From a bacterium (GTDB taxonomy: Bacteria; UBA8248): DNA of 64,000 nucleotides. Position 1 is the stretch's first letter, and every line of letters begins with the position of its first letter. A program made the position numbers and the translations under genes. The notes below the pieces were generated by a model. It worked only from the letters and a program-made list of their open reading frames with translations. It made no database searches and had not been told where the DNA came from. Of this stretch, positions 143 through 12,061 are shown piece after piece. The stretch spans positions 2,688,001 through 2,752,000 of the forward strand of contig CBDBBI010000010.1 in assembly GCA_965202625.1 (NCBI GenBank), written 5' to 3'.

Positions 143-877
143 GGTTGACACGAGAGGCCTAGGAATGGCAAGGTTGCAAGGACGACAACCAAAGGTGATT
201 TATGGGCATGAGTTCGAGTTTGTGTTCCCCATAAAATACGAAGAGGAACACGTTCTCAAAAGAATAGAGGCTGCCGCTCCGCAACAGACATGGATGGAAA
301 ACTTAGTGAACAAAACAAACAAGCACGCGAACGACGCAAATGACCCCAACCCCACGAGATGGCGATTGAAAAAGCGCGTGAGGGGGTCATAGGGTGATCG
401 CCAAAATATGAATTTTCCAACCGCCCGTCTTGCTCTGGGCAAAGAGATTCGGCTTGTTGCCACTGAGACGCTTAGGCGCGTTCCTTCCAGGACAGAGAGG
501 ATTATTACTCCCTCGAGGGGTGGCAGGAGAAAATTCAACAGCTTATACAAAATGAAGAATCCGCGAGCGGGCTGAGGAAAACCTCCAGAGAACCAAAGTC
601 GTCAAAGAAAATCTTGGTGGATTGCATATCTAGCCTAGCAGAGGGTCGGGGGGGAGCAATCGCACTAACTCCTGTAACCCCGCTCTCTTGAGGAGACTTT
701 GCAATAAGCAAAGGATGCGCGCAGACAAACGTTAGAGAGAGCCTTAAAAACTAAGCGCGGAATTAAAGATAAAGATCGAAGTTTCTAACCGAGCTCCACT
801 GGTGCGTGCATTACGAAAAGACTAACTTAACCACATGGAAACCTGTGCCTCAGTGCTTGAAGCCCGGCGGCTTCGAT

Positions 878-1546
878 TTATTTCTTGATGAGGCCCAACA
901 CGAATTTCCCCTGAATCTCCAGGTGTTTAATCACCAGGCACTCGGCTTTTATCGCGTCGCTGCCGAGAATGGCTTGGAGTATTTCCTCGTGCTCGGCTAC
1001 AGAGTCGTCGAGGCGCCCGGGCGCGTGGAGCGTCACCACGCGGGTCTTCATGATTTGTTGCCGAAGATTTTCGATGAGCGACTGTAGCCTTGAATTCCCG
1101 CAAGCACTCGTGATGTGTCGATGAAAATCGCGGTTCGTCGCCCAGTAGGAATCTACGTCGCCCCGCTCGTGATGTCGTTTCAAGCGTTGAAAAAAATGGC
1201 GAAGTTTCTTGTTTGCCCTTCCTTTCTGAAGGTTCGGGGTTGCGAGGCGCGTGGCGAGACCCTCTAGAACGCTGGTGATGGCGTAGATGTCTAAAACCTC
1301 GTCTTCTTTCACGCGGCTTACATACGCACCCTTGTGGGGAACGATGGTGATGTACCCTTCGGCTGCGAGTTCCCTGAAGGCTTCTCGAAGCGGCGTTCTG
1401 CTCACGCCCATCGATTGGGTCAACGCCGTCTCGACCAGTTTGTCTCCCGGCTGAAAAGTTCCGTTCAGAATGGCGTCTTTTATCTGTTCCGACGCCATCC
1501 TGCTCAAGGATTTGGGTTTTTTGATTTGAACGCCGAGTATGCGCAT
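878..1546 (-). CDS. GntR family transcriptional regulator (FCD domain)
   Basis: N-terminal wHTH (PGDKLVE..L...MGVSRTPLREA) and C-terminal FCD (NRDFH, GNSRL, EHEEIL). Confidence 0.93.
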   Translation of the reverse strand: MRILGVQIKKPKSLSRMASEQIKDAILNGTFQPGDKLVETALTQSMGVSRTPLREAFRELAAEGYITIVPHKGAYVSRVKEDEVLDIYAITSVLEGLATRLATPNLQKGRANKKLRHFFQRLKRHHERGDVDSYWATNRDFHRHITSACGNSRLQSLIENLRQQIMKTRVVTLHAPGRLDDSVAEHEEILQAILGSDAIKAECLVIKHLEIQGKFVLGLIKK

Positions 1547-1628
1547 GTCGAGCCTCAGTCCGCCCCCTTCACGGATAAATGATCAAATGAAGAAAAGCCC
1601 TCAAGGCGAATTCTAGGTTGTAGAAGAA

Positions 1629-2819
1629 TCAGACCACGCCCCTCCCTCGAAGAACGCTCCGTTGCGTTTCATCCATTCCGAGAATAGTCTCCAACACTTC
1701 TTCGGTGTGCTCGCCGAGTGCGGGCGGGGGCGTCCGCACGGCACCCGGAGCTTCCGAGAGCTTGATGGGCACACCGGTCACTTTCGTCGGGCCAGCGATA
1801 GGCACATCGACGTCCACCACCATCTCCCGGGAGAGCACCTGTGGTTCGCTGAGCACCTGACCGATGTCGTTTATCGGTCCGCATGGAATACCGGCCCCCC
1901 GCAGGGTCTCGAGCATTTCTTCCACCATTTTTTCGGCAAAAAAGACGTCGAGGATCGCTTGTAGTTCTTCGCGGTTGTTCACTCGGTCCTTGTTGACGGC
2001 GAATTTGGCATCTTCCTTGACGTCTCCTAGCCCCATCGCGTCGCAGAATTTTCTCCACAGGCTGTCGTTTCCCACGCCTAGGTTGAAGTATCCATCCTTG
2101 CACGCATAGGTTTCATAAGGCGTAATTGAGGGATGCCGGTTTCCTCTTCTTTGCGGGATGTTTCGGGTCGCGAAATAGCTGTTCGCGTGGTAGGTGAGCA
2201 GGGCCACCTGCCCGTCGAGCATGCTAATGTCAACCATTTGGCCGATCCCCGTTTTCTCGCGGTGATACAGGGAGAGCAAAATGCCCTGGGCGGCGAGCAT
2301 TCCGGCCGTGATGTCTGCGATGGACGCGCCCACTTTAGTAGGCGGGCCGTCGGCGTCTCCTGTGATGCTCATCACCCCGCCCTCGCCCTGGATGACCACG
2401 TCGAAACCCGGTTCGTTCCTCCGGGGGCCGGTTTGTCCAAAGCCGGAGAGCGAGGCGAATATCATTCGGGAGTTGATCTGGTGGATCGCCTTCCAGGAAA
2501 ACCCGAGTTTATCCAGTGTCCCGGGTCTGAAATTCTCCACCATGACGTCGCTTTTTTGAATCAAGTCCCGTAAAAGCGCCTTTCCGCGCTCATGTTTCAG
2601 GTTGAGCGTGAGGCTCTTTTTGTTCCGGTTGATGGAGATGAAGTACGTGCTCACGCCGTTCAGGAAGGGGGGCCCCCAGCTACGAGTGTCGTCTCCGCCG
2701 TCCGGGTTTTCGATCTTGATGACCTCAGCACCCATATCGCCCAGCATCATGGTACAATAGGGGCCTGCGAGAATGCGCGTCAGGTCAACTACCCGAATAC
2801 CTTTTAGTGGTCCGGACAT
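1629..2819 (-). CDS. Family III (CaiB/BaiF/Frc) CoA-transferase
   Basis: PLKGIRVVDLTRILAGPYCT, GDDTRSWGPP, NRNKKSL, ENFRPG and catalytic Asp in SIADITAG. Confidence 0.95.
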   Translation of the reverse strand: MSGPLKGIRVVDLTRILAGPYCTMMLGDMGAEVIKIENPDGGDDTRSWGPPFLNGVSTYFISINRNKKSLTLNLKHERGKALLRDLIQKSDVMVENFRPGTLDKLGFSWKAIHQINSRMIFASLSGFGQTGPRRNEPGFDVVIQGEGGVMSITGDADGPPTKVGASIADITAGMLAAQGILLSLYHREKTGIGQMVDISMLDGQVALLTYHANSYFATRNIPQRRGNRHPSITPYETYACKDGYFNLGVGNDSLWRKFCDAMGLGDVKEDAKFAVNKDRVNNREELQAILDVFFAEKMVEEMLETLRGAGIPCGPINDIGQVLSEPQVLSREMVVDVDVPIAGPTKVTGVPIKLSEAPGAVRTPPPALGEHTEEVLETILGMDETQRSVLRGRGVV

Positions 2820-2834
2820 GAGGGTTTCTCTCCG

Positions 2835-3959
2835 TCAGGCTCGAATAAGTGATATCAGCACGCCAGCCGCGATCGCAGAACCAATGACGCCGGCCACGTT
2901 GGGGCCCATTGCGTGCATGAGCAGAAAGTTCCTGGGGTTCTCATCCGCGCCTACTTTTTGAACCACGCGCGCGGCCATGGGAACCGCGCTTACGCCCGCC
3001 GCGCCGATGAGGGGGTTGATCGGCGTGCGGCTGAGCGCGGCCATTATCTTTCCGAAGATCACGCCGGTGGCGGTGCCGACGCCGAAGGCGATGAACCCTA
3101 GCACGAGGATGCCGATGGTCTCCCACTTGAGAAAACTCCCGGCCGTCATTGAGGCACCCACGGATACTCCAAGAAATATCGTCACCATGTTGAGCAGGGT
3201 ATCTTCTGAGGTTTTGAGCAGCCTCTCGACGACGCCGCACTCTCTGAAGAGGTTTCCGAGCATGAGCATTCCGATGAGGGGTGCTGCCGACGGCAAGAGA
3301 AGGCCCGTGAGCAGCGTCGTGATGACGGGAAAGAGGATGCGAACGGGTTTTTCGATTTCCCTCAGCTGCATCATTGTGCGCGCGCGCTCCTCTTTGGTGG
3401 TTAGCGCCCTCATGATGGGGGGCTGTATCATGGGAACGAGAGCCATGTAGCTGTAAGCGGCCACGGCGATGGGGCCCAACAGGTGGGGCGCCAGCTTCGA
3501 GGCAGTGTAGATGGCGGTGGGGCCATCCGCTCCGCCGATGATGCCGATGGCACCGGCTTCGGAGAGGCTGAAGCCCAGACCGATGCTCCCGAGTAGCGTG
3601 GCGAAGATGCCAAACTGCGCCGCTGCGCCCAGGAGCAGCATTTTCGGGTTCGCTAACAGCGGGCCGAAGTCCGTCAGCGCGCCGATGCCCATGAAGATCA
3701 GAGGGGGGAATACGCCTGCCTTCACCCCGGAATAGAAATAGCGGATGAGGCCGCCTTCATCAAAAATACCAGTTTCGGGAAGGTTGGAGAGCAGCATTCC
3801 AAACCCGATGGGGATCAGGAGCAAAGGTTCGAAACCTTTTTGGATGGCCAGATAGAGGAGTAAGCAGGAAATTCCGAGCATGAGGACGTCTCCGAAACTC
3901 AGCGCGGAGAAACCGGTGACGGAGATGAAATCGGCGACCGAGAAGGACAGGCGGCTCAT
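2835..3959 (-). CDS. mmdB: Na+-translocating decarboxylase beta subunit (MmdB/GcdB/OadB family)
   Basis: Very hydrophobic. Motifs [56 protein letters not shown]. Confidence 0.95.
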
Positions 3960-4357
3960 GAAATCTCCAGCAGCAACTGAGCGGCTTCCACCTTGTCGCC
4001 TTTTCGCACGTGAAGCGCCTGAACGACACAGTCCGAATCAGCCGTAATCACGTTTTCCATCTTCATCGCCTCAAGGACTAAAAGCGTATCCCCGGCGCGT
4101 GCCGCATCGCCCGGCGCCACGTTGACGGATAGTACGACGCCCGGTAGGGGGGCCAATATCTTCCCGCCGTCGCTGGCGGACTCAGGTGTCTGTCTGCGTG
4201 CGCTGGTAGGATGAGGGGCGGTGGGGAGCGAGACCTCCTCTATTCTCACGCGATGCGTCTGGCCGTCTATCGTAATGTGGATATCCTGCGAGCCAGGGTC
4301 GCGCTCGACGCTCACAGAGTAGCGCTTTCCGTTCACGGTCAGATAAAAGTTTCTCAA
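3956..4357 (-). CDS. mmdC: Biotin carboxyl carrier subunit (gamma) of the Na+ pump decarboxylase
   Basis: Biotinylation motif EAMKMEN, N-terminal [12 protein letters not shown], 4-nt overlaps with both neighbours. Confidence 0.92.
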
Positions 4358-4680
4358 CGCCGCCTCTGTTGACTTAAGTGGCTCAGACGGGTGGTTTGCG
4401 CCCAGACGGAATTCACATCGCGTCGCACTTTCGGGACGCGAACCTCCGACATTTCTGTTTCCCCAAAATATCCTGCGGCCGCGGCCAGGACGAAGGCGAG
4501 GTCATCATTTTCCGGAGAGACTTCCCCGTTCTCCGCGTTCGTATTCTTCTTTCGTCGCCCGGTGCTGGTGTCAAGGAGTCTCTCTAGGAGTTGAATGACT
4601 GCCATAAGTATGAGCAGAGAGCCAAAGACGACGCCCATGCCGATGATGGTCAGCAGAATTGCGGGCGTGAACGTATCCAC
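4354..4680 (-). CDS. mmdD: OadG/MmdD-family membrane anchor subunit (delta)
   Basis: Single N-terminal TM helix with GMGVVFGSLLIL, an AAAA helix and C-terminal S.W...R. Lies between the alpha and biotin subunits. Confidence 0.85.
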   Translation of the reverse strand: MDTFTPAILLTIIGMGVVFGSLLILMAVIQLLERLLDTSTGRRKKNTNAENGEVSPENDDLAFVLAAAAGYFGETEMSEVRVPKVRRDVNSVWAQTTRLSHLSQQRRR

Positions 4681-4697
4681 GAAGGAGTCCTTTATCC

Positions 4698-6260
4698 CTA
4701 CAGCGGAATGTTTCCGTGCTTTTTCCGCGGCCTGTCCTCTTGCTTGAGCGCGGTCATCTCCAAGGCGCGAACAAGCGCGCCTCTCGTGTGGCGCGGTTCA
4801 ATGACGGCGTCTACGAGCCCCAGTTTTGCCGCCGCGTAAGGTTTGGCGAAGCGCTTTCGATATTCTTCTATTTTCTCCTGGCGAACCTTCTCGGGGTCCT
4901 GTGCCTCGCTAATCTCACGCTTGAAAATGACGTTGGCGGCCCCCTCCGGGCCCATCACGGCGATCTCGGCGAACGGATAGGCGAGAACGCGGTCGTAACC
5001 TAAGCCGAATCCGCTCATCGCGACAAAGGCGCCGCCGTAGCTCTTGCGGACGATGAGGGCGATTTTCGGCACACTTGCCTCGCTGTAGGCGAAGAGCACC
5101 TTGGCGCCATGACGAATGACCCCCCCGTATTCCTGCTGGACGCCGGGCAAATATCCGGGCACGTCGACGAAGTTGATGATGGGGACGTTGAACGCGTCAC
5201 AGAAGCGCACGAAGCGGGCGAGCTTATCGGAGCTGTCGATGTCCAAGACACCGGCCAGGTGCGCCGGCTGATTTCCCACGACGCCGACGGGCTTTCCGCC
5301 CAATCGCGCGAATCCAACGAAGATGTTCCTGGCGAACGCTGGCTGAACTTCCAGAAAATCGCCTTCGTCGAACACGTTGGTCACTAGGTCTCGCACGTCG
5401 TAGGCGATCGTGGCCTTTACCGGGACGACCTCATCCAGAGCGGGGTTCTCGTCGGGAGGCCACTCTGAGATCTCGGACAAAGGGGGATCGTCCAGGTTAT
5501 TCGACGGCAAGAAAGAGAGTAGTTTCTTCACCACATCAAAGCACGCGCGCTCGTCCTTGGCCAGAAAATGCGCGTTCCCACTCGTTGCGCTGTGTACCGC
5601 ACCGCCGCCTAGCTCCTCGGGTGAGACGTCTTCTCCCGTCACCGCCTTAATCACGTCTGGCCCCGTGATGAACATCTTGCTCAACCCGTCGACCATGAAG
5701 ACGAAATCCGTGAGTGCAGGCGAATAGACCGCACCGCCGGCGCAAGGGCCCAGAATGACGGAAATTTGGGGGATCACCCCCGATGCGTGCGTGTTGCGCT
5801 GAAAGATGCGCGCGTAGCCATGAAGGGAGAGAACGCCCTCCTGAATGCGTGCACCACCGGAATCGAGGATCGTTATAATGGGCGAGCCGGTTTTTATGGC
5901 GAGTTCCTGCACCTTCACAATTTTTTCCGCGTGCATTTCTCCTAGAGAACCGCCCAGAGTACTGAAATCTTGCGAGGCCACGAACACGAGCTGGCCGTTC
6001 ACGCGTCCGCTTCCGGTGATGATGCCATCCCCGGGGGTACGCTTCGCATCCATTCCGAAGTCTGATGAGCGCGTTTCAATGAAAAGGTTGATTTCCGAGA
6101 AACTACCGGAGTCCAGCAGAAGCTCAAGTCGCTCTCTGGCGGTGAATTTTCCTTGTTTGCGCTGTTTTTCTTTCGCCGCCTCGCCGCCCAACGCCCGCGC
6201 CTTGGAGGCATGTTCCTTCAGCTCATCCATCGGATTTTGATGGTTAGATTTTGGCGACAA
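4698..6260 (-). CDS. mmdA: Acyl-CoA carboxyltransferase (MmdA/PccB-type), alpha subunit of the Na+ pump decarboxylase
   Basis: ARERL..LLD.GSF, DSGGARIQEG, GPCAGGAVYSPA, DVPGYLPG, MGPEGA, C-terminal KKHGNIPL. TTG start with AGGAG RBS. Confidence 0.93.
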   Translation of the reverse strand: MSPKSNHQNPMDELKEHASKARALGGEAAKEKQRKQGKFTARERLELLLDSGSFSEINLFIETRSSDFGMDAKRTPGDGIITGSGRVNGQLVFVASQDFSTLGGSLGEMHAEKIVKVQELAIKTGSPIITILDSGGARIQEGVLSLHGYARIFQRNTHASGVIPQISVILGPCAGGAVYSPALTDFVFMVDGLSKMFITGPDVIKAVTGEDVSPEELGGGAVHSATSGNAHFLAKDERACFDVVKKLLSFLPSNNLDDPPLSEISEWPPDENPALDEVVPVKATIAYDVRDLVTNVFDEGDFLEVQPAFARNIFVGFARLGGKPVGVVGNQPAHLAGVLDIDSSDKLARFVRFCDAFNVPIINFVDVPGYLPGVQQEYGGVIRHGAKVLFAYSEASVPKIALIVRKSYGGAFVAMSGFGLGYDRVLAYPFAEIAVMGPEGAANVIFKREISEAQDPEKVRQEKIEEYRKRFAKPYAAAKLGLVDAVIEPRHTRGALVRALEMTALKQEDRPRKKHGNIPL

Positions 6261-6275
6261 TATAAATCTCCTAAA

Positions 6276-6292
6276 GTGTATACTGCATACAA
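6276..6292. promoter_or_regulatory. Putative GntR/FadR-type operator (tandem GTATAC/GCATAC palindromes)
   Basis: GTGTATAC followed by TGCATACAA immediately upstream of the mmdA RBS. Fits the GTM-N0-1-KAC core described for FadR-subfamily sites. Confidence 0.45.
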
Positions 6293-6458
6293 TCAGCTTT
6301 GATGAGTAAAGTCAAGGAGTTTCGTTGAGGCCCCGGAGAGATTTTAGAGCACGTGTCGGAGCGTCGCCCGTTCCCATTTTCCAATTGAGGGTCAGTACAT
6401 GTGGCGGTGTGCCCAAAAAGGGACTGAAAAACACGCATGCGCCATTCGCTGGACAGCT

Positions 6459-7373
6459 TTAAGACGTAATTCTCCACTCCGGTATTCCGGCGTGAAGGAG
6501 TTGTCCCGGTAGCTGGCGGTTCAGAATTCTCTCTGCTTGAGCGACGGCTTCCAAGAGTTTTGGGAGGTGGATTCCGGTTTCCACCCCCATCTCGTGAAGC
6601 ATATTGACAGTGTCCTCGCTCGCTATGTTGCCTGTGGCTCTTGGGGCGAAGGGGCAGCCCCCCAACCCGCCGATGGACGCGTCGAACGTGTTGATTCCGG
6701 CCTCTAGGCCCGCCAGGAGGTTCGCCAAGCCGACGCCCCTTGTGTTGTGTAGGTGAAGCGCGTAGCGTACCGAGGGGAATTTGTTGCGCACATGCGTGGT
6801 GAGCCTCCGTATTTCTAATGGATTCGTCATGCCCACGGTGTCAGCCAAAACGATTTCCTCGCACCCCATGTCCACGTATTCGCCGACCACCCATTCGATG
6901 TCCACGTAGGAAACGCGTCCTTCATATGGACAGCCGAAGGCGGCGACGACTCCGCCCCTGAGCTTGAGGTTCGCTCCCGCAGCCATTTTGGCGACTTCAC
7001 AGGCTACCTCGAGCATTTTCTTTCGGCTCGCCCGCATATTTTTTTGGTTGAACGTCTCACTGGCGGCGACGAACAGCATGACGCGATTCAGCTCGCACGC
7101 AAGTGCCCGTTCCATGCCCGGAACGTTGGGAACCAGTGCCTCGTATTCTGCCTCAGGATGGCGTCTGCAGCTGACGAGCACCTCCCTGGCGTCTCTCATC
7201 TGGGGAACGTGCTTTGGGCTGACGAAACTTGTCACCTCAATGCGGCGGACGCCGGCGTCGGTGATGGCGTCCAAAAGTTTGATCTTATCCTCTGGTGGAA
7301 CGTATTGCTTTTCGTTCTGAAGGCCATCTCGCGCGCTGACTTCGACGACGTTGACCTGCCTAGGGAGATTCAT
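6459..7373 (-). CDS. Hydroxymethylglutaryl-CoA lyase family protein (DRE-TIM)
   Basis: EVSARDGLQNE, TSFVSPK.VPQM, FGCPYEG, LADTVG, HLHNTRG, GGLGGCPFAP.ATGN. Confidence 0.92.
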   Translation of the reverse strand: MNLPRQVNVVEVSARDGLQNEKQYVPPEDKIKLLDAITDAGVRRIEVTSFVSPKHVPQMRDAREVLVSCRRHPEAEYEALVPNVPGMERALACELNRVMLFVAASETFNQKNMRASRKKMLEVACEVAKMAAGANLKLRGGVVAAFGCPYEGRVSYVDIEWVVGEYVDMGCEEIVLADTVGMTNPLEIRRLTTHVRNKFPSVRYALHLHNTRGVGLANLLAGLEAGINTFDASIGGLGGCPFAPRATGNIASEDTVNMLHEMGVETGIHLPKLLEAVAQAERILNRQLPGQLLHAGIPEWRITS

Positions 7374-7423
7374 CGCATTTCTTCTCCTACGTAAGGAAAG
7401 GGCTTGTTTTCATTATTTTGTTC

Positions 7424-8534
7424 TCATCCTGCCGAGGTTCTCCCCGCCTCGTGGAGGCGGGGGAGGGATGCCTGCGGCTCCATGTCCAGGGCCCCTCCCC
7501 GCGTGAACTTGTCTTCGGATATGGAGTGACGCCATTCTGTGTATGGCTCTTCATCAAGGAAATGGGAGAGTTGATGCGCTCTGTCCACGTTCTCCAGAGG
7601 GACAAGGCGAGGGCGAATCCTGCCGATTTGGCTACGAATGACTCATAGGGCGAACTTTAGGATGGCGGTTTTACCTGCGGCGTCAAAGACCCGCGCCATG
7701 TTCCATGCGTTTTTAGTGCCACCGAATTTCGAGAATTTGATGAGCGCGACGTCGGCCGCCTCCTCATCCACGATGTGGTACGCGTCGTCGATAGAGAACA
7801 AGGATTCATCCACGGCGCCCTTCATTCCCCGAGCGCGTATCTCCCGAAAAAGCTCGATACATTTTTTCTCTTTGGGAAGGACCGGTTGCTCGAAGTGCTC
7901 AAGTCCGATCTTGAGCATATCGTCCGTGAAGCGGAGGGCTTCGTCGGGTGAAAATCCGCCGTTCGCATCCGTTCGGAGCTGGATTTGCGAGCCGAATCTT
8001 TCGTGCAGCCGAGCGATGCGATCGGCGTCCGCCTTCGCGTTAAAGCCTGATTTTACCTTGAGGGTGCGCACGCCTTGATGGACGAGGGTTTCCGCTTTTC
8101 GGAGGGCTTCCTCGTTCGAAAGGAGACCTATCGGGCCGTCGAGCGCGATGGTGTTCCTTCTTGGTCCGCCAAAAATGTGAGCTAACGACGTTTTGCTGAC
8201 TTTAGCGGCTAGGTTGATGGCGACGATTTCCAGAGCGTTGCGTGCTGCGCTCATGCCCTTGAAATCTGCGGTCTCATTAAGTGTGGCGAGTAGCTCACTC
8301 GCTTCTTTTCCCTGAATTCGGGGGGCGGCCTCCTGGATCTTAGCAGCCATCTTGGGGCCTGTTTCTTGTGTGACTTGCATGAGCGGTGCTGCCTCGCCCC
8401 CAACCTTCCTCTCCCTCACCGTCTGTGAGGCGAACCACGATTCGCTCCACGACGGAAGTGCTCCCATAGCGATTTCTGGATTTCTGGGCGACTCGCGCTA
8501 CGGTGTCCCAAGCCTTCGTTTTCTGAATCGACAT
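7424..8534 (-). pseudogene. Frameshifted enolase-superfamily (MLE/dipeptide epimerase subgroup) gene
   Basis: N-terminus (RIVVRLTDGEGEEGWG) is in one frame, the core (KVK, DAN, EQP, DES, IKFSKFGG) in another, and C-terminal pieces (SSPYES, GPGHG) in further frames. At least 4 shifts. AGGAGA RBS before ATG 8534. Confidence 0.8.
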
Positions 8535-8631
8535 GAATTATCTCCTGAGCGGATGAAAGGGGTCCCTTCCACTCCAAGAGAGGGGAGGAGGCCGATAGCC
8601 CCTGTTTGTGATTCATGGCGCTCCGGTCGTT

Positions 8632-9216
8632 TTAGTCCTTATGGGGATGAGATGGGGACGCGCCTTGGACAAGATGGCGATCGCCAATGGGGGATTCTTT
8701 CGGCGTATAAATCCGGATGTCCGGCAGAGTGCGGTACGCCTCGCCGTAGTCTAGCCCGTATCCGACGACAAAATGATCCGCAATCGTGAATCCGACGTAG
8801 TCCGCCTCTATCCCCAATTCTCTCCGCGCGGGTTTATCCAGTAAAACGCACGTTCTCACCGATGCGGGGCGTTTTCCTCTCAGTAAAGCGAGTGCGCTCG
8901 AGAGCGTGTGGCCCGTATCCAGGATATCGTCGATTAGCAACACGTTTCGCCCCTTGATGGTGCTGAGGTGGCTGGCGTCGATGTTCACGCGGCCCGCACT
9001 TTGCTCGCCTGCGCCATAGCTCGATGCCGAGAGGAAGTCGAGTGTGGCGTCGCGCATGAGGGCGCGGGCGAGATCGACGCCGAAGAATACAGTGCTTTTC
9101 AGTATCATGATGATGTGAAGCGGCCCGGCGGGTAGTGCCGCGCGGATTTCTGCGGCGAGCGCCGGAAGGCGATTTTGGATGTTCGCATGGGATATCAATA
9201 TCTCGTTCGCAGGCAT
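8632..9216 (-). CDS. hpt: Hypoxanthine phosphoribosyltransferase
   Basis: SSYG, PRPP-binding motif VLLIDDILDTGHTL, LLDKP, FVVGYGLDY. Confidence 0.92.
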   Translation of the reverse strand: MPANEILISHANIQNRLPALAAEIRAALPAGPLHIIMILKSTVFFGVDLARALMRDATLDFLSASSYGAGEQSAGRVNIDASHLSTIKGRNVLLIDDILDTGHTLSSALALLRGKRPASVRTCVLLDKPARRELGIEADYVGFTIADHFVVGYGLDYGEAYRTLPDIRIYTPKESPIGDRHLVQGASPSHPHKD

Positions 9217-9219
9217 CGT

Positions 9220-10377
9220 TTACTCGAGCATCGCCAGCAGCAGGCGCTTCATGTCCTCTTGGGTGGAGGGGACCGGGTTCGTGTTGACCTGGTGGCTTTC
9301 CGCCGCGTCTTTCGCCATGACGTCCAAGTCTTCGTTCACGACGTCCGCCTCTCTGAGGGTCGCCGGAATGCCGATGTCCCTGTTGATTTCGCGGATGGCT
9401 TCTATCGTGGTTTGCGCCGTATGCGTCGTATCCTCCCTTTTCTCGGATGGGACAAGGAGGGGAGACATGCGCGCGTAGGTTTCGCGCATGACAGGAAGGT
9501 TGAACTCCATGACGGGCGGCAAAAATATGCCGTTTGCCGTGCCGTGGTGAAGCCCGTGGTGGGCTCCCAGCGGATGCGCGAGCGAGTGCACGATGCCGAG
9601 TCCCGTGTTGGTGAATGCGCGTCCGGCGAGCGTGGCCGCGAGGGAGATGGCGTCCGCCGCCTCCGGGTCGGAGGGATCGTTCACGTACGCTCTACCGCGC
9701 TCGCCGACATAGGTGATGGCCTGAAACGCCAGGGCTTCCGTCCATGGGTTGGAGTTGGGTGATCCGAGGGATTCAATGGCGTGGGTGAGCGTGTCCATCA
9801 TCGCGCCCGCTGCGATATGGGAGGGAAGCTTAGCGAGCAGTGTGGAGTCGATGACGGCGACTTTTGCGAACAGCGAATGATCGGCCAAGACCGTTTTGAT
9901 TTTCAGTGCCGTATCCGTGACGATGGCACTTGAAGTGACCTCGCTTCCTGTGCCGGCCGTGGTGGGAACGGTGATGAGTGGCGGACCGGGCTTCGTCGCT
10001 TTTCCCCGGCCATAGTAGTCGCTCGGCGCGCCTCCGTTCGCGACGATGGACAGGGTCGCCTTGGCGGTGTCCATCGTGCTTCCGCCGCCGGCGGCGATGA
10101 ACCCATCACAGCCGTGCTGGGTGAAAAAATCCCGGGCCTTCATGATGCTAGTGTCCGTGGGGTTTGTTTCGGCTTGATCGTAGAACTGATATTCGATCGA
10201 TGTGCTTTCAAGCCCCTCCATGAGGGAGTGCAGCACCCCACTGGAGGCGAGTCCCGGATCGGTGACGAGCATGGGTTTAGAAAGTCCGAGATTCCTCGCT
10301 TCCTCTCCAACGCGCACGACTTCTCCGCGACCGAAGCGAATTTGAGGACCAGATGCGATTTGAAACGCTTTAACCAT
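9220..10377 (-). CDS. Iron-containing alcohol dehydrogenase
   Basis: GGGSTMDTAK, PTTAGTGSEVT, DTLTHAIES, HSLAH..G....HHG. Confidence 0.93.
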   Translation of the reverse strand: MVKAFQIASGPQIRFGRGEVVRVGEEARNLGLSKPMLVTDPGLASSGVLHSLMEGLESTSIEYQFYDQAETNPTDTSIMKARDFFTQHGCDGFIAAGGGSTMDTAKATLSIVANGGAPSDYYGRGKATKPGPPLITVPTTAGTGSEVTSSAIVTDTALKIKTVLADHSLFAKVAVIDSTLLAKLPSHIAAGAMMDTLTHAIESLGSPNSNPWTEALAFQAITYVGERGRAYVNDPSDPEAADAISLAATLAGRAFTNTGLGIVHSLAHPLGAHHGLHHGTANGIFLPPVMEFNLPVMRETYARMSPLLVPSEKREDTTHTAQTTIEAIREINRDIGIPATLREADVVNEDLDVMAKDAAESHQVNTNPVPSTQEDMKRLLLAMLE

Positions 10378-10394
10378 AAAAAGACATTCCTTCG

Positions 10395-11030
10395 CTATTC
10401 GAATGAGGGTTTGGAGAAAGCGTGAAGCGCGATCTGATAATCTTTCTCCGTGTCAATGTCGAGGAATACATTCCCATTGCGTAAGTGGAGAAAAACGATC
10501 TTTTCAGGAAATTCCATTTCGAGTTTCTGGATGATTCGCCTTCCCCCCTCGTCTCCGGTGATTCTCCGCAGTTCATCCGTCAGCGAAGCGGAGAACAACG
10601 TGGGGTTTCCGCGCCTACCTTCGAACAGCGGTACTACGATTTGTGTTCTTGGGCGGGATACGCCGTAAAGTGCTATAATGTCGTCCACGATTTCAGGAGT
10701 CAGAAGAGGCTGATCCCCCAATGCGAACAAATAGGCGTCGGCGGCTTTCGCCGCTGCGTTCAGCCCGGCGATTACGCTTGTGCTTTGTCCCTCGGCGTAA
10801 CGGGGATTATGCGTGAAACACACGTCCAGTTCTTTCAGGGCGTCCTTAATCATTGCCTCCGCGTGGCCTGTGACGAGGATGACCTCTGAAACCGAGCTCT
10901 CAAGCAGGACCTTCGCCGTTTTTCGGATGACGGTATCCGCACCCAAGGGCAACAGAAGTTTGTTCCGTCCCAGGCGTTTCGATCGCCCTGCGGCGAGCAG
11001 TATCGCGCTGACGTGGTTTGAATCCGTCAT
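10395..11030 (-). CDS. mocA: Molybdenum cofactor cytidylyltransferase-like nucleotidyltransferase
   Basis: AILLAAGRSKRLGRNKLLL, GQSTS, LGDQP, GNPTLF, GDEGGR, DIDT. Start moved to ATG 11030 (GGAG RBS, downstream of the predicted promoter). Confidence 0.85.
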   Translation of the reverse strand: MTDSNHVSAILLAAGRSKRLGRNKLLLPLGADTVIRKTAKVLLESSVSEVILVTGHAEAMIKDALKELDVCFTHNPRYAEGQSTSVIAGLNAAAKAADAYLFALGDQPLLTPEIVDDIIALYGVSRPRTQIVVPLFEGRRGNPTLFSASLTDELRRITGDEGGRRIIQKLEMEFPEKIVFLHLRNGNVFLDIDTEKDYQIALHAFSKPSFE

Positions 11031-11079
11031 CGTGGCACTCTCCACAGAAACAGAACACAATGCCCAGCGTCTTGCTGCC

Positions 11080-11109
11080 ATGGTAGAGAGGCGGACGCTT
11101 GCATGTCAA
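11080..11109 (-). promoter_or_regulatory. Sigma70-like promoter for mocA-adh-hpt
   Basis: Minus strand TTGACA-N18-TACCAT. Confidence 0.55.
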
Positions 11110-11138
11110 TTCTCGATGTGCGCCCGAAAGCCTTTCCG

Positions 11139-11168
11139 TTGACAAGACCTCACCCTGCGCCCTAATAT
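11139..11168 (+). promoter_or_regulatory. Sigma70-like promoter for the cyclase gene (divergent)
   Basis: TTGACA-N18-TAATAT. Confidence 0.5.
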
Positions 11169-11347
11169 TATTGAAAAGTGGAAAAGTTCTCAAAATCCAT
11201 GGACATTTCGTTGAGAAATCTGCATGTGGGCTAAAGAATTTCGCTGGTTTGTCGTGGCCAATGCTAGGGATGCGCTTCGTTTGACTGATCGGGAAGCAGG
11301 AGATGATTCACTTACTTAATTGAGGAACATGCCGGAGGAGCGTAAGG

Positions 11348-12061
11348 ATGGCATATAAAAATCATGAAATTGTGGATCTCACTCAGGAAATCTATCAGGG
11401 GCAGCCCGTGTTTGTGGGGCATCCTGACACTTGGCGATGGACGAACATGACGCATGAGGAAAGTGTGGCTAGCGGCCGCTTTAAGAGCGAGATGAGCTAT
11501 TATTCTGGCATCGTTCAGTTTTGCGAGCACGGCCCCACGCATGTGGATTCTATTAGCCATCTGGACCCCGCGCCCGATGCGCCCCATATCGATGAGATGA
11601 ACTTCAACTCTTTCTACAGTCGGGGGATAGCGATTGATTTTGAGAACGTGCAGGACAACAGCTACATCAACGTGGACGACGTCAAAAGACGACTTGATCA
11701 CTACAACTACGAGATAAGACCGGGCGATACCCTCCTCTACACGTACGGGCACTTCAAGCGGCATCACCCGACTGCCTTGTATACCGTGGCTTATGCTGGC
11801 TGGACGCGCGCCGCGGCCGAGTATGTATATGGCGAGTGCGGCGCAATCAACGTGGGCACCGACGCCCCCAGCATGGATATGGCGACCAGCCCGGAATATC
11901 CTTGCCACCTCGTGTGCCGCGAGTTGGGTCGAACCAACACGGAGAATCTGTGCAACATCGAAGATGTGGTCGGCAAGGAGTTCCTGTACATCGGGCTTCC
12001 TCTCAAGATCCGAGGCGGGTCGGGTTCGCCGATTCGAGCGATAGCCGTGCTCAACGCTTGA
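11348..12061 (+). CDS. Cyclase family protein (kynurenine formamidase/isatin hydrolase-like metallohydrolase)
   Basis: IVDLT, HGPTHVDSISH (variant of HxGTHxDxPxH), GTDAPSMD, ENL, LPLKIRGGSGSPIRA. Confidence 0.9.
   Translation: MAYKNHEIVDLTQEIYQGQPVFVGHPDTWRWTNMTHEESVASGRFKSEMSYYSGIVQFCEHGPTHVDSISHLDPAPDAPHIDEMNFNSFYSRGIAIDFENVQDNSYINVDDVKRRLDHYNYEIRPGDTLLYTYGHFKRHHPTALYTVAYAGWTRAAAEYVYGECGAINVGTDAPSMDMATSPEYPCHLVCRELGRTNTENLCNIEDVVGKEFLYIGLPLKIRGGSGSPIRAIAVLNA

Follow-up and report, generated by a model that had tools for sequence, protein, structure and literature searches.

The bacterium represented by GenBank assembly GCA_965202625.1 (GTDB lineage UBA8248) encodes, within a 64,000-nucleotide stretch of contig CBDBBI010000010.1 (positions 2,688,001 to 2,752,000, hereafter the window), an operon for the alpha, delta, gamma and beta subunits of a sodium-coupled acyl-CoA decarboxylase of the methylmalonyl-CoA decarboxylase (Mmd) type, together with a family III CoA-transferase and a GntR-family regulator. 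Apart from the product of this operon, the genome encodes no biotin enzyme and no acyl-CoA carboxyltransferase, and the gene set occurs almost throughout the phylum, at one locus per genome. Because no other enzyme would be able to interconvert acetyl-CoA and malonyl-CoA, or propionyl-CoA and methylmalonyl-CoA, we infer that the complex is the acyl-CoA carboxylase of the lineage and that its main physiological role is carboxylation, not energy conservation. Specifically, it may be a reversible Na+-coupled acyl-CoA carboxylase/decarboxylase on which the lineage depends for all of its malonyl-CoA and for any exchange between propionyl-CoA and methylmalonyl-CoA, a reading to which we give a little less than an even chance.

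Biotin enzymes and malonyl-CoA in the host genome and its phylum

The genome (3.09 Mb, 99.69% complete, 10 contigs) contained no match to Biotin_carb_C (PF02785), and its matches to CPSase_L_D2 (PF02786) were solely CarB-like or weak, none of them resembling a biotin carboxylase. Searches by tblastn with the biotin carboxylases of two relatives and the pyruvate carboxylase of a relative recovered only the biotinyl domain of the operon's own gamma subunit and a weak CarB hit. There was no PYC_OADA match in the genome, and so no OadA, nor was AccA or AccD found. By the same searches, alpha is the genome's sole match to PF01039, beta its only OAD_beta protein and gamma its sole small biotinyl protein, the other three PF00364 matches lying in open frames of 412–446 amino acids that are taken to be lipoyl proteins. 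BirA is present.

FabD, FabH and FabF all scored over their curated cut-offs, and lipid A genes lie in a run within the window. Given these three Fab proteins and the lack of an ATP-dependent carboxylase, the cell therefore needs malonyl-CoA without having an ATP-dependent way to make it.

The alpha subunit was compared with chains of known structure. It scored 560–683 bits against chains of the PccB/12S type, 205–224 bits against the MccB type and 90–95 bits against GcdA, and it should therefore handle short acyl-CoAs that are carboxylated at the alpha carbon. The best match in the PDB was 1vrg (683 bits, full length), which we take to be TM0716 of Thermotoga maritima; Streptomyces PccB entries and a chain named 'hypothetical methylmalonyl-CoA decarboxylase alpha' gave 613–616 bits, with Streptomyces coelicolor PccB matched over the full length at 616 bits, and the 12S transcarboxylase subunit gave 600 bits. 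Against the mmdA model TIGR01117, alpha reached 785 bits, under the cut-off of 998.8. Unlike the ATP-dependent PccB/AccB-type carboxylases that it resembles, alpha has no biotin carboxylase partner here, and it is a Na+ channel subunit that comes after the biotin carrier.

Val413 of alpha aligns with a position at which the PccB entries 3iav and 1xnw differ and at which 1vrg has Ile; Ile or Val occupies this position in 24/24 orthologous alpha loci. We take it to be the specificity position of PccB. In work on S. coelicolor PccB and AccB, Asp at the specificity position is said to exclude acetyl-CoA and Ile to admit it.

A survey of 51 genomes of the phylum found OAD_beta in 49, at one locus each, the two misses being metagenome-assembled genomes (MAGs) of about 350 contigs. 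FabD exceeded its cut-off in 49/51 genomes, and a mutase gene was found in all 51. By contrast with these, accD passed its cut-off in none of the 51 (best matches of at most 80 bits, in alpha-type frames), and ACCA reached at most 56 bits, in every case in a carboxyltransferase frame of about 530 amino acids. No match to biotin carboxylase was obtained in 23 genomes, the present one among them, and these 23 have no ATP-dependent acyl-CoA carboxylase; the matches in the other 28 are weighed below. Several relatives of the same genus also carry frames of about 3000–3500 amino acids with a FabD-like acyltransferase domain, probably polyketide synthases and a further consumer of malonyl-CoA.

The operon, its control region and its neighbours

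The preliminary description of the window had reported a minus-strand run in the order alpha, delta, gamma, beta, transferase and GntR, with 15 bp between beta and the transferase and with intact beta motifs, and this layout was confirmed by the open reading frames (ORFs) and by Pfam and NCBIfam models (Table 1). Delta overlaps gamma, and gamma overlaps beta, by 4 bp; alpha and delta are separated by 17 bp, and the transferase and the GntR/FCD gene, which is the final gene of the operon, by 82 bp. Beta exceeded the cut-off of TIGR01109 (514 bits, cut-off 190.6) and carries GGADGPT at residue 142 and GPNVAG at residue 352. Delta, with a single hydrophobic helix at its N terminus, scored 39.8 bits against TIGR01195 (cut-off 36.05), and gamma 62.8 bits against the MmdC model NF047903 (cut-off 200). 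No epsilon subunit of Mmd was seen with the operon, and no transporter gene was found in the operon or among its immediate neighbours. Past GntR lie an ORF of 116 amino acids, an alanine dehydrogenase gene, and then rpoA with ribosomal genes.

Table 1. Genes of the operon, the adjoining lyase gene and the signals between them (positions in the window)
Feature	Position	Strand	Description
alpha	4698..6260	-	acyl-CoA carboxyltransferase, PccB/12S/MmdA type; 520 aa, TTG start; PF01039, 620 bits
delta	4354..4680	-	OadG-like small membrane subunit; 108 aa; PF04277, 39.8 bits (cut-off 27)
gamma	3956..4357	-	biotin carrier; 133 aa; PF00364, 56.5 bits; EAMKM, Lys99
beta	2835..3959	-	carboxybiotin decarboxylase / Na+ channel subunit; 374 aa; PF03977, 528.6 bits
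CoA-transferase	1629..2819	-	family III (CaiB/BaiF); 396 aa; PF02515, 461.5 bits
GntR-family regulator	878..1546	-	with FCD ligand domain; 222 aa; PF00392, 66 bits; PF07729, 88 bits
Ribosome site	6268-6272	-	AGGAG, upstream of alpha
Palindrome	6277..6291	-	TGTATGCAGTATACA; candidate operator for GntR; 17-31 nt before the start codon of alpha
Candidate -35 box	6310..6315	-	TTGACT; kept in same-genus loci
HMG-CoA-lyase-type gene	6459..7373	-	directly upstream of alpha; 304 aa; NF004283, 352.7 bits (cut-off 246)

Conservation of the locus was examined in two sets. In the first, 37 of 41 related genomes had a match to the transferase at E ≤ 1e-60, and in the best 30 loci (30 genomes, our own included) beta directly precedes the transferase in 30/30 and GntR follows it in 29/30, the exception being a contig end. 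In the second, 27 of 79 loci on named contigs have a transferase at least 60% identical to that of the operon; beta is adjacent in 27/27, alpha is present in 24/24, GntR in 22/22 and the lyase gene upstream of alpha in 20/20, the smaller denominators counting only loci with enough flank. The loci of the second set come from MAGs deposited under Nitrospinota, 'Candidatus Tectomicrobia' and 'uncultured Nitrospinaceae', and the order gamma–beta–transferase–GntR is common to the orthologous loci examined. The preliminary description had held that its proposal would fall if the pairing of pump and transferase were not conserved; with 30/30 and 27/27 loci, the pairing is conserved.

The sequence TGTATGCA(A/G)(T/A)ATACA stands at the place of the palindrome in the window and in 15/15 same-genus loci, and a GTATACAA core stands there in 7/9 more distant loci. 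A consensus promoter scan of the region returned 0 promoters; none was called upstream of alpha because there is no good -10 hexamer. Terminator-like sites were uninformative (13 found, 9.3 expected). Judged from this conservation, alpha appears to be preceded by a promoter with a GntR operator, and the genes from alpha to GntR would form one self-regulated operon. By binding the palindrome that overlies the promoter, the regulator probably represses the operon, with an acid or an acyl-CoA as the signal. TGTAT-N5-ATACA has 3 copies in the genome. The use of a GntR regulon to name the pathway was ruled out, as the two copies besides the operon's own both fall within ORFs; with the palindrome thus confined to the operon, nothing points to joint control with the mutase genes.

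The transferase matches PF02515 over profile positions 1–366 of 366. Its best match in the PDB, over the full length, is the human succinate-hydroxymethylglutarate CoA-transferase SUGCT (EC 2.8.3.13; 343 bits), the closest relative of solved structure, and Asp169 of its ADITAG segment falls opposite the TDLATG Asp in the SUGCT chain, which we take to be the catalytic residue. The NCBIfam equivalogs, however, were all far under their cut-offs: none of the named substrate models was reached, the scores being 387 bits for succinate-glutarate (the best; cut-off 750), 340 for mesaconate (700), 329 for oxalate (522) and 314 for formyl-CoA (504). Since, in addition, the genome holds 11 matches to the transferase at E ≤ 1e-60 (the operon copy included), the substrate is not readable from homology. 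Relatives of the same genus have 11–19 such family III matches each, an exceptionally large family for genomes of 3–4.6 Mb.

An attempt to read the substrate from the neighbourhoods of relatives of 44–58% identity (96 ORFs, 16 loci) was abandoned, as the contexts are heterogeneous. Only two of these 16 loci were suggestive. One, from Desulfarculaceae, combines an alpha-like carboxyltransferase, a mutase and a B12 subunit with a transferase of 52% identity; the other (L096) has a TRAP transporter and a second transferase.

Upstream of alpha, the preliminary description had missed a gene of the hydroxymethylglutaryl-CoA (HMG-CoA) lyase type. Its product scored 253 bits against human HMG-CoA lyase, with the catalytic RDGLQNE, HLH (HxH) and GGCP segments aligned. 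Membership of the operon was rejected: the lyase gene and alpha are separated by the conserved TTGACT and palindrome, at a distance that ranges from 74 to 1123 bp among the loci. The lyase is probably a conserved neighbour in a separate transcription unit. A feeder for it from leucine breakdown is absent, the genome having no methylcrotonyl-CoA carboxylase; free hydroxymethylglutarate could come from the operon transferase, given that SUGCT is the latter's best solved relative.

Genes for an Fe-alcohol dehydrogenase and a hypoxanthine phosphoribosyltransferase (8632-10377, minus strand) lie upstream of the lyase in 18/18 loci with enough flank, and these 18 include more distant families. Synteny thus extends over a long range whatever the genes do, and the mere adjacency of the lyase counts for less as evidence. 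Between these genes and the lyase, an ORF of the enolase superfamily (7643-8467, minus strand; 274 amino acids) has only its MR_MLE_C domain recognised. It is found as about 740 bp at 65–74% in most same-genus loci and is absent from two loci (L041 and L043) and from more distant families. Its product could be a truncated enzyme, or the gene could be in decay.

Proposed mechanism and alternative readings

On the reading that we favour, the complex would act as a reversible hub around carboxybiotin, of the Mmd type and with both malonyl-CoA and methylmalonyl-CoA as substrates. Carboxybiotin could have two sources. In the first, beta would run in reverse, driven by the inward Na+ gradient; Dimroth and Hilpert reportedly described such a reversal of Mmd with acetyl-CoA, in vitro, in 1984. 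In the second, alpha would take the carboxyl group from (S)-methylmalonyl-CoA, itself formed from succinyl-CoA by mutase and epimerase. The transferase would complete this loop by converting propionyl-CoA and succinate to propionate and succinyl-CoA, for a net conversion of succinate and acetyl-CoA to propionate and malonyl-CoA. From either source, alpha would hand the carboxyl group to acetyl-CoA. A methylmalonyl-CoA donor would explain the presence of the transferase in the operon, and the Na+ gradient would explain the universal retention of beta and delta.

Thermotoga maritima, used as a control genome, has no biotin carboxylase yet has OAD_beta, Carboxyl_trans and FabD, so that the pattern recurs in an independent lineage, although a PYC_OADA domain is also present there. 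For the Thermotogales, Lombard and Moreira (2011, PMC3199775) report no biotin carboxylase or transferase subunits of acetyl-CoA carboxylase and a retained carboxyltransferase of the acyl-CoA type. The same solution may explain the malonyl-CoA of Thermotogales. A literature search turned up no paper on the operon, and none claiming that an acetyl-CoA carboxylase coupled to Na+ or fed by methylmalonyl-CoA operates in vivo.

Several points weigh against this proposal. The direction of the reaction would follow from what the genome lacks, and a role as acetyl-CoA carboxylase alone would leave both the transferase and a GntR/FCD repressor, typically catabolic, unexplained. By rough estimate, Na+-driven carboxylation lies near the thermodynamic limit and would need a large Na+ gradient; of primary Na+ pumps, neither nqrB nor an RnfD-like match was found in the genome. 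The sole alternative route to malonyl-CoA that was tested is malonyl-CoA synthase, which we take PRK07514 to represent and for which the best match was 307 bits (cut-off 558). A homologous gene set in Vicinamibacterales, linked to a carrier of the MatC type, suggests by analogy the decarboxylation of imported malonate. In a closed genome of the same genus (G020, locus L025), beta is split into two frames (residues 1–211 and 223–354), through either a frameshift or an error of assembly; a genuine split would argue that the operon is not essential.

The 28 genomes with a match to biotin carboxylase also count against the proposal. Within the genus, the matches lie in open frames of about 1160–1190 amino acids, and the only one that was fetched and scanned (G022, L147:2287-5751) is a single-chain pyruvate carboxylase of 1154 amino acids. 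Outside the genus, most matches lie in frames of about 330–690 amino acids. In the two such genomes examined (G025 and G023), an AccC-like gene (564–572 bits, cut-off 597) stands beside a divergent carboxyltransferase, and this pair might make malonyl-CoA in those genomes.

Besides G022, fifteen genomes of the same genus gave a match to biotin carboxylase; in all of them but one, the frame is about as long as that of the pyruvate carboxylase. Our own genome and six others of the genus have none. Anaplerosis therefore differs inside one genus.

Two alternatives turn on decarboxylation. In Veillonella parvula and Propionigenium modestum, the Mmd pump (MmdA/B/C/D(E), EC 7.2.4.3) groups the four subunit types found here in a single operon, and the present complex might likewise run forwards: the transferase would activate succinate with propionyl-CoA, mutase and epimerase would lead to methylmalonyl-CoA as the substrate of the pump, Na+ would be exported, and malonyl-CoA would come from elsewhere. 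The operon would then be a branch that conserves energy or extrudes Na+. We consider this unlikely, although candidates exist here for all four activities of the succinate-to-propionate pathway of P. modestum (CoA-transferase, mutase, epimerase and Mmd) and each of the four pump subunits belongs to the Mmd type. The preliminary description had stated that mutase, epimerase and biotin carboxylase are missing from the window. That is so, as none of the 55 ORFs scanned there gave a match to a mutase, to an epimerase of the glyoxalase type or to a biotin carboxylase. For the first two it does not hold across the genome, which elsewhere has two genes of the methylmalonyl-CoA-mutase family (C10:2519803 and C10:1030129) and an epimerase-like gene (107 bits, cut-off 115). 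The ubiquity of the mutase in the phylum, the Desulfarculaceae locus that joins carboxyltransferase, mutase and B12 subunit to a related transferase, and the use of succinyl-CoA by the nearest named relatives of the transferase all agree with such a pathway.

The differences from P. modestum and the other Mmd hosts nevertheless run the other way. The nearest mutase gene is at least 167 kb from the operon, and the operator occurs nowhere else outside ORFs, so that no co-regulation of the mutases is apparent. The transferase beside mmd in P. modestum is of the acetyl-CoA hydrolase/transferase family; here a family III enzyme and GntR belong to the operon, and alpha stays under the mmdA cut-off. 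Mmd hosts are fermenters, whereas this genome encodes a haem-copper oxidase (COX1, 511 bits), as expected of an aerobe, in which fermentative succinate decarboxylation is unlikely as a core function. Decarboxylation would also leave FabD, FabH and FabF without a source of malonyl-CoA. As the operon encodes the sole biotin enzyme of a genome without acetyl-CoA carboxylase, the direction here is likely reversed.

One of the two mutase genes has a context of its own. It is directly preceded by an enoyl-CoA-hydratase ORF of 190 amino acids (L005:7528-8100) whose match to its family is confined to the C-terminal two thirds, and is followed by a gene for an aldehyde:ferredoxin oxidoreductase; the substrate of this second mutase may be different from methylmalonyl-CoA.

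The other alternative is the one put forward in the preliminary description, a stand-alone cycle in which the transferase moves CoA from acetyl-CoA or propionyl-CoA onto malonate or methylmalonate and the pump exports Na+, with neither ATP nor a mutase. It, too, seems doubtful. Malonate degradation by Sporomusa malonica, known from enzyme assays, involves a malonate CoA-transferase (EC 2.8.3.3) and a malonyl-CoA decarboxylase. The cycle predicts a carrier for the free dicarboxylate, and it draws real support from the Vicinamibacterales locus (L092), where a MatC-type dicarboxylate carrier, a transferase, alpha, two small ORFs and beta stand tightly packed on one strand and a CoA-transferase thus again adjoins an Mmd-type pump. 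That locus differs from ours in that no carrier lies in or beside the operon here, the distribution here is that of a core gene set, and the two transferases are only 53% identical. A local GntR/FCD repressor would suit an inducible operon for acid catabolism, and the Ile or Val that alpha and its orthologues have at the specificity position would suit malonyl-CoA. Enzymes of EC 2.8.3.13 are listed as accepting malonyl-CoA in PMC8085960. A single locus in 49/51 genomes, however, looks core and not like an accessory catabolic trait, and a malonate cycle would leave the malonyl-CoA for fatty acids unexplained whenever malonate is not supplied.

The mutases elsewhere in the genome and throughout the phylum, the missing transporter, the oxidase and the lack of an ATP-dependent carboxylase together weaken the stand-alone module and favour what the preliminary description had named as its alternative, Na+-driven carboxylation in reverse. 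A narrower form of this, with propionyl-CoA as the only substrate, is improbable: operon and mutase are both near-universal, the aerobic host has no ATP-dependent propionyl-CoA carboxylase, and alpha is PccB-like, all of which would suit an enzyme that, with mutase and epimerase, assimilates propionyl-CoA to succinyl-CoA while the transferase activates propionate from succinyl-CoA, but a further, unrecognised enzyme would be needed to make malonyl-CoA, and a hydrophobic specificity residue speaks against a strict preference for propionyl-CoA.

Relation to other carboxylation systems and significance

Other decarboxylase and carboxylase types were compared with the operon. For the biotin-dependent malonate decarboxylase, the Mad system of Malonomonas rubra, beta scored 184 bits against the MadB model TIGR03136 (cut-off 596.9), and the acyl carrier protein of Mad and MadA, MadC and MadD had no match in the family listings of the 13 ORFs at 200-11908, where no search by name was made. 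The operon is not a member of the bacterial AccABCD type, as it has no AccC, AccA or AccD, although it may work like one.

A precedent in logic is Nitrospina gracilis, which has a true oadA–oadB–oadG set and for which Lücker et al. (2013, PMC3578206) propose a reversed oxaloacetate decarboxylase for the carboxylation of pyruvate; there, too, a Na+ pump in reverse would replace a missing ATP-dependent carboxylase. Identity of the present operon with that oxaloacetate decarboxylase was rejected, since the genome has no PYC_OADA match and its carboxyltransferase is one for acyl-CoA and not for pyruvate.

Taken to the level of the lineage, the proposal is that it has abandoned ATP-dependent acetyl-CoA carboxylase, and that all the malonyl-CoA that goes into fatty acids, lipid A and polyketides is supplied by a membrane-bound biotin enzyme of the Mmd type. 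The driving force would be either the sodium-motive force or the transfer of a carboxyl group from methylmalonyl-CoA, with succinate entering through the transferase and the mutase. We advance this tentatively, as a serious possibility that stops short of being probable. In bacterial fatty-acid synthesis, the reaction of acetyl-CoA carboxylase is regarded as the committed step, universal and paid for with ATP, and the enzyme is an antibiotic target. If the proposal is true, these bacteria would have a cheaper route to malonyl-CoA, and their lipid synthesis would be tied to the ion gradient of the membrane. Annotations such as 'methylmalonyl-CoA decarboxylase' or 'oxaloacetate decarboxylase beta' in aerobes would then need to be read again, and the operon would offer metabolic engineering an ATP-free carboxylation module. 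It would also supply a testable answer to the question of where malonyl-CoA comes from in bacteria without biotin carboxylase, of which the Thermotogales are the case in print (PMC3199775).

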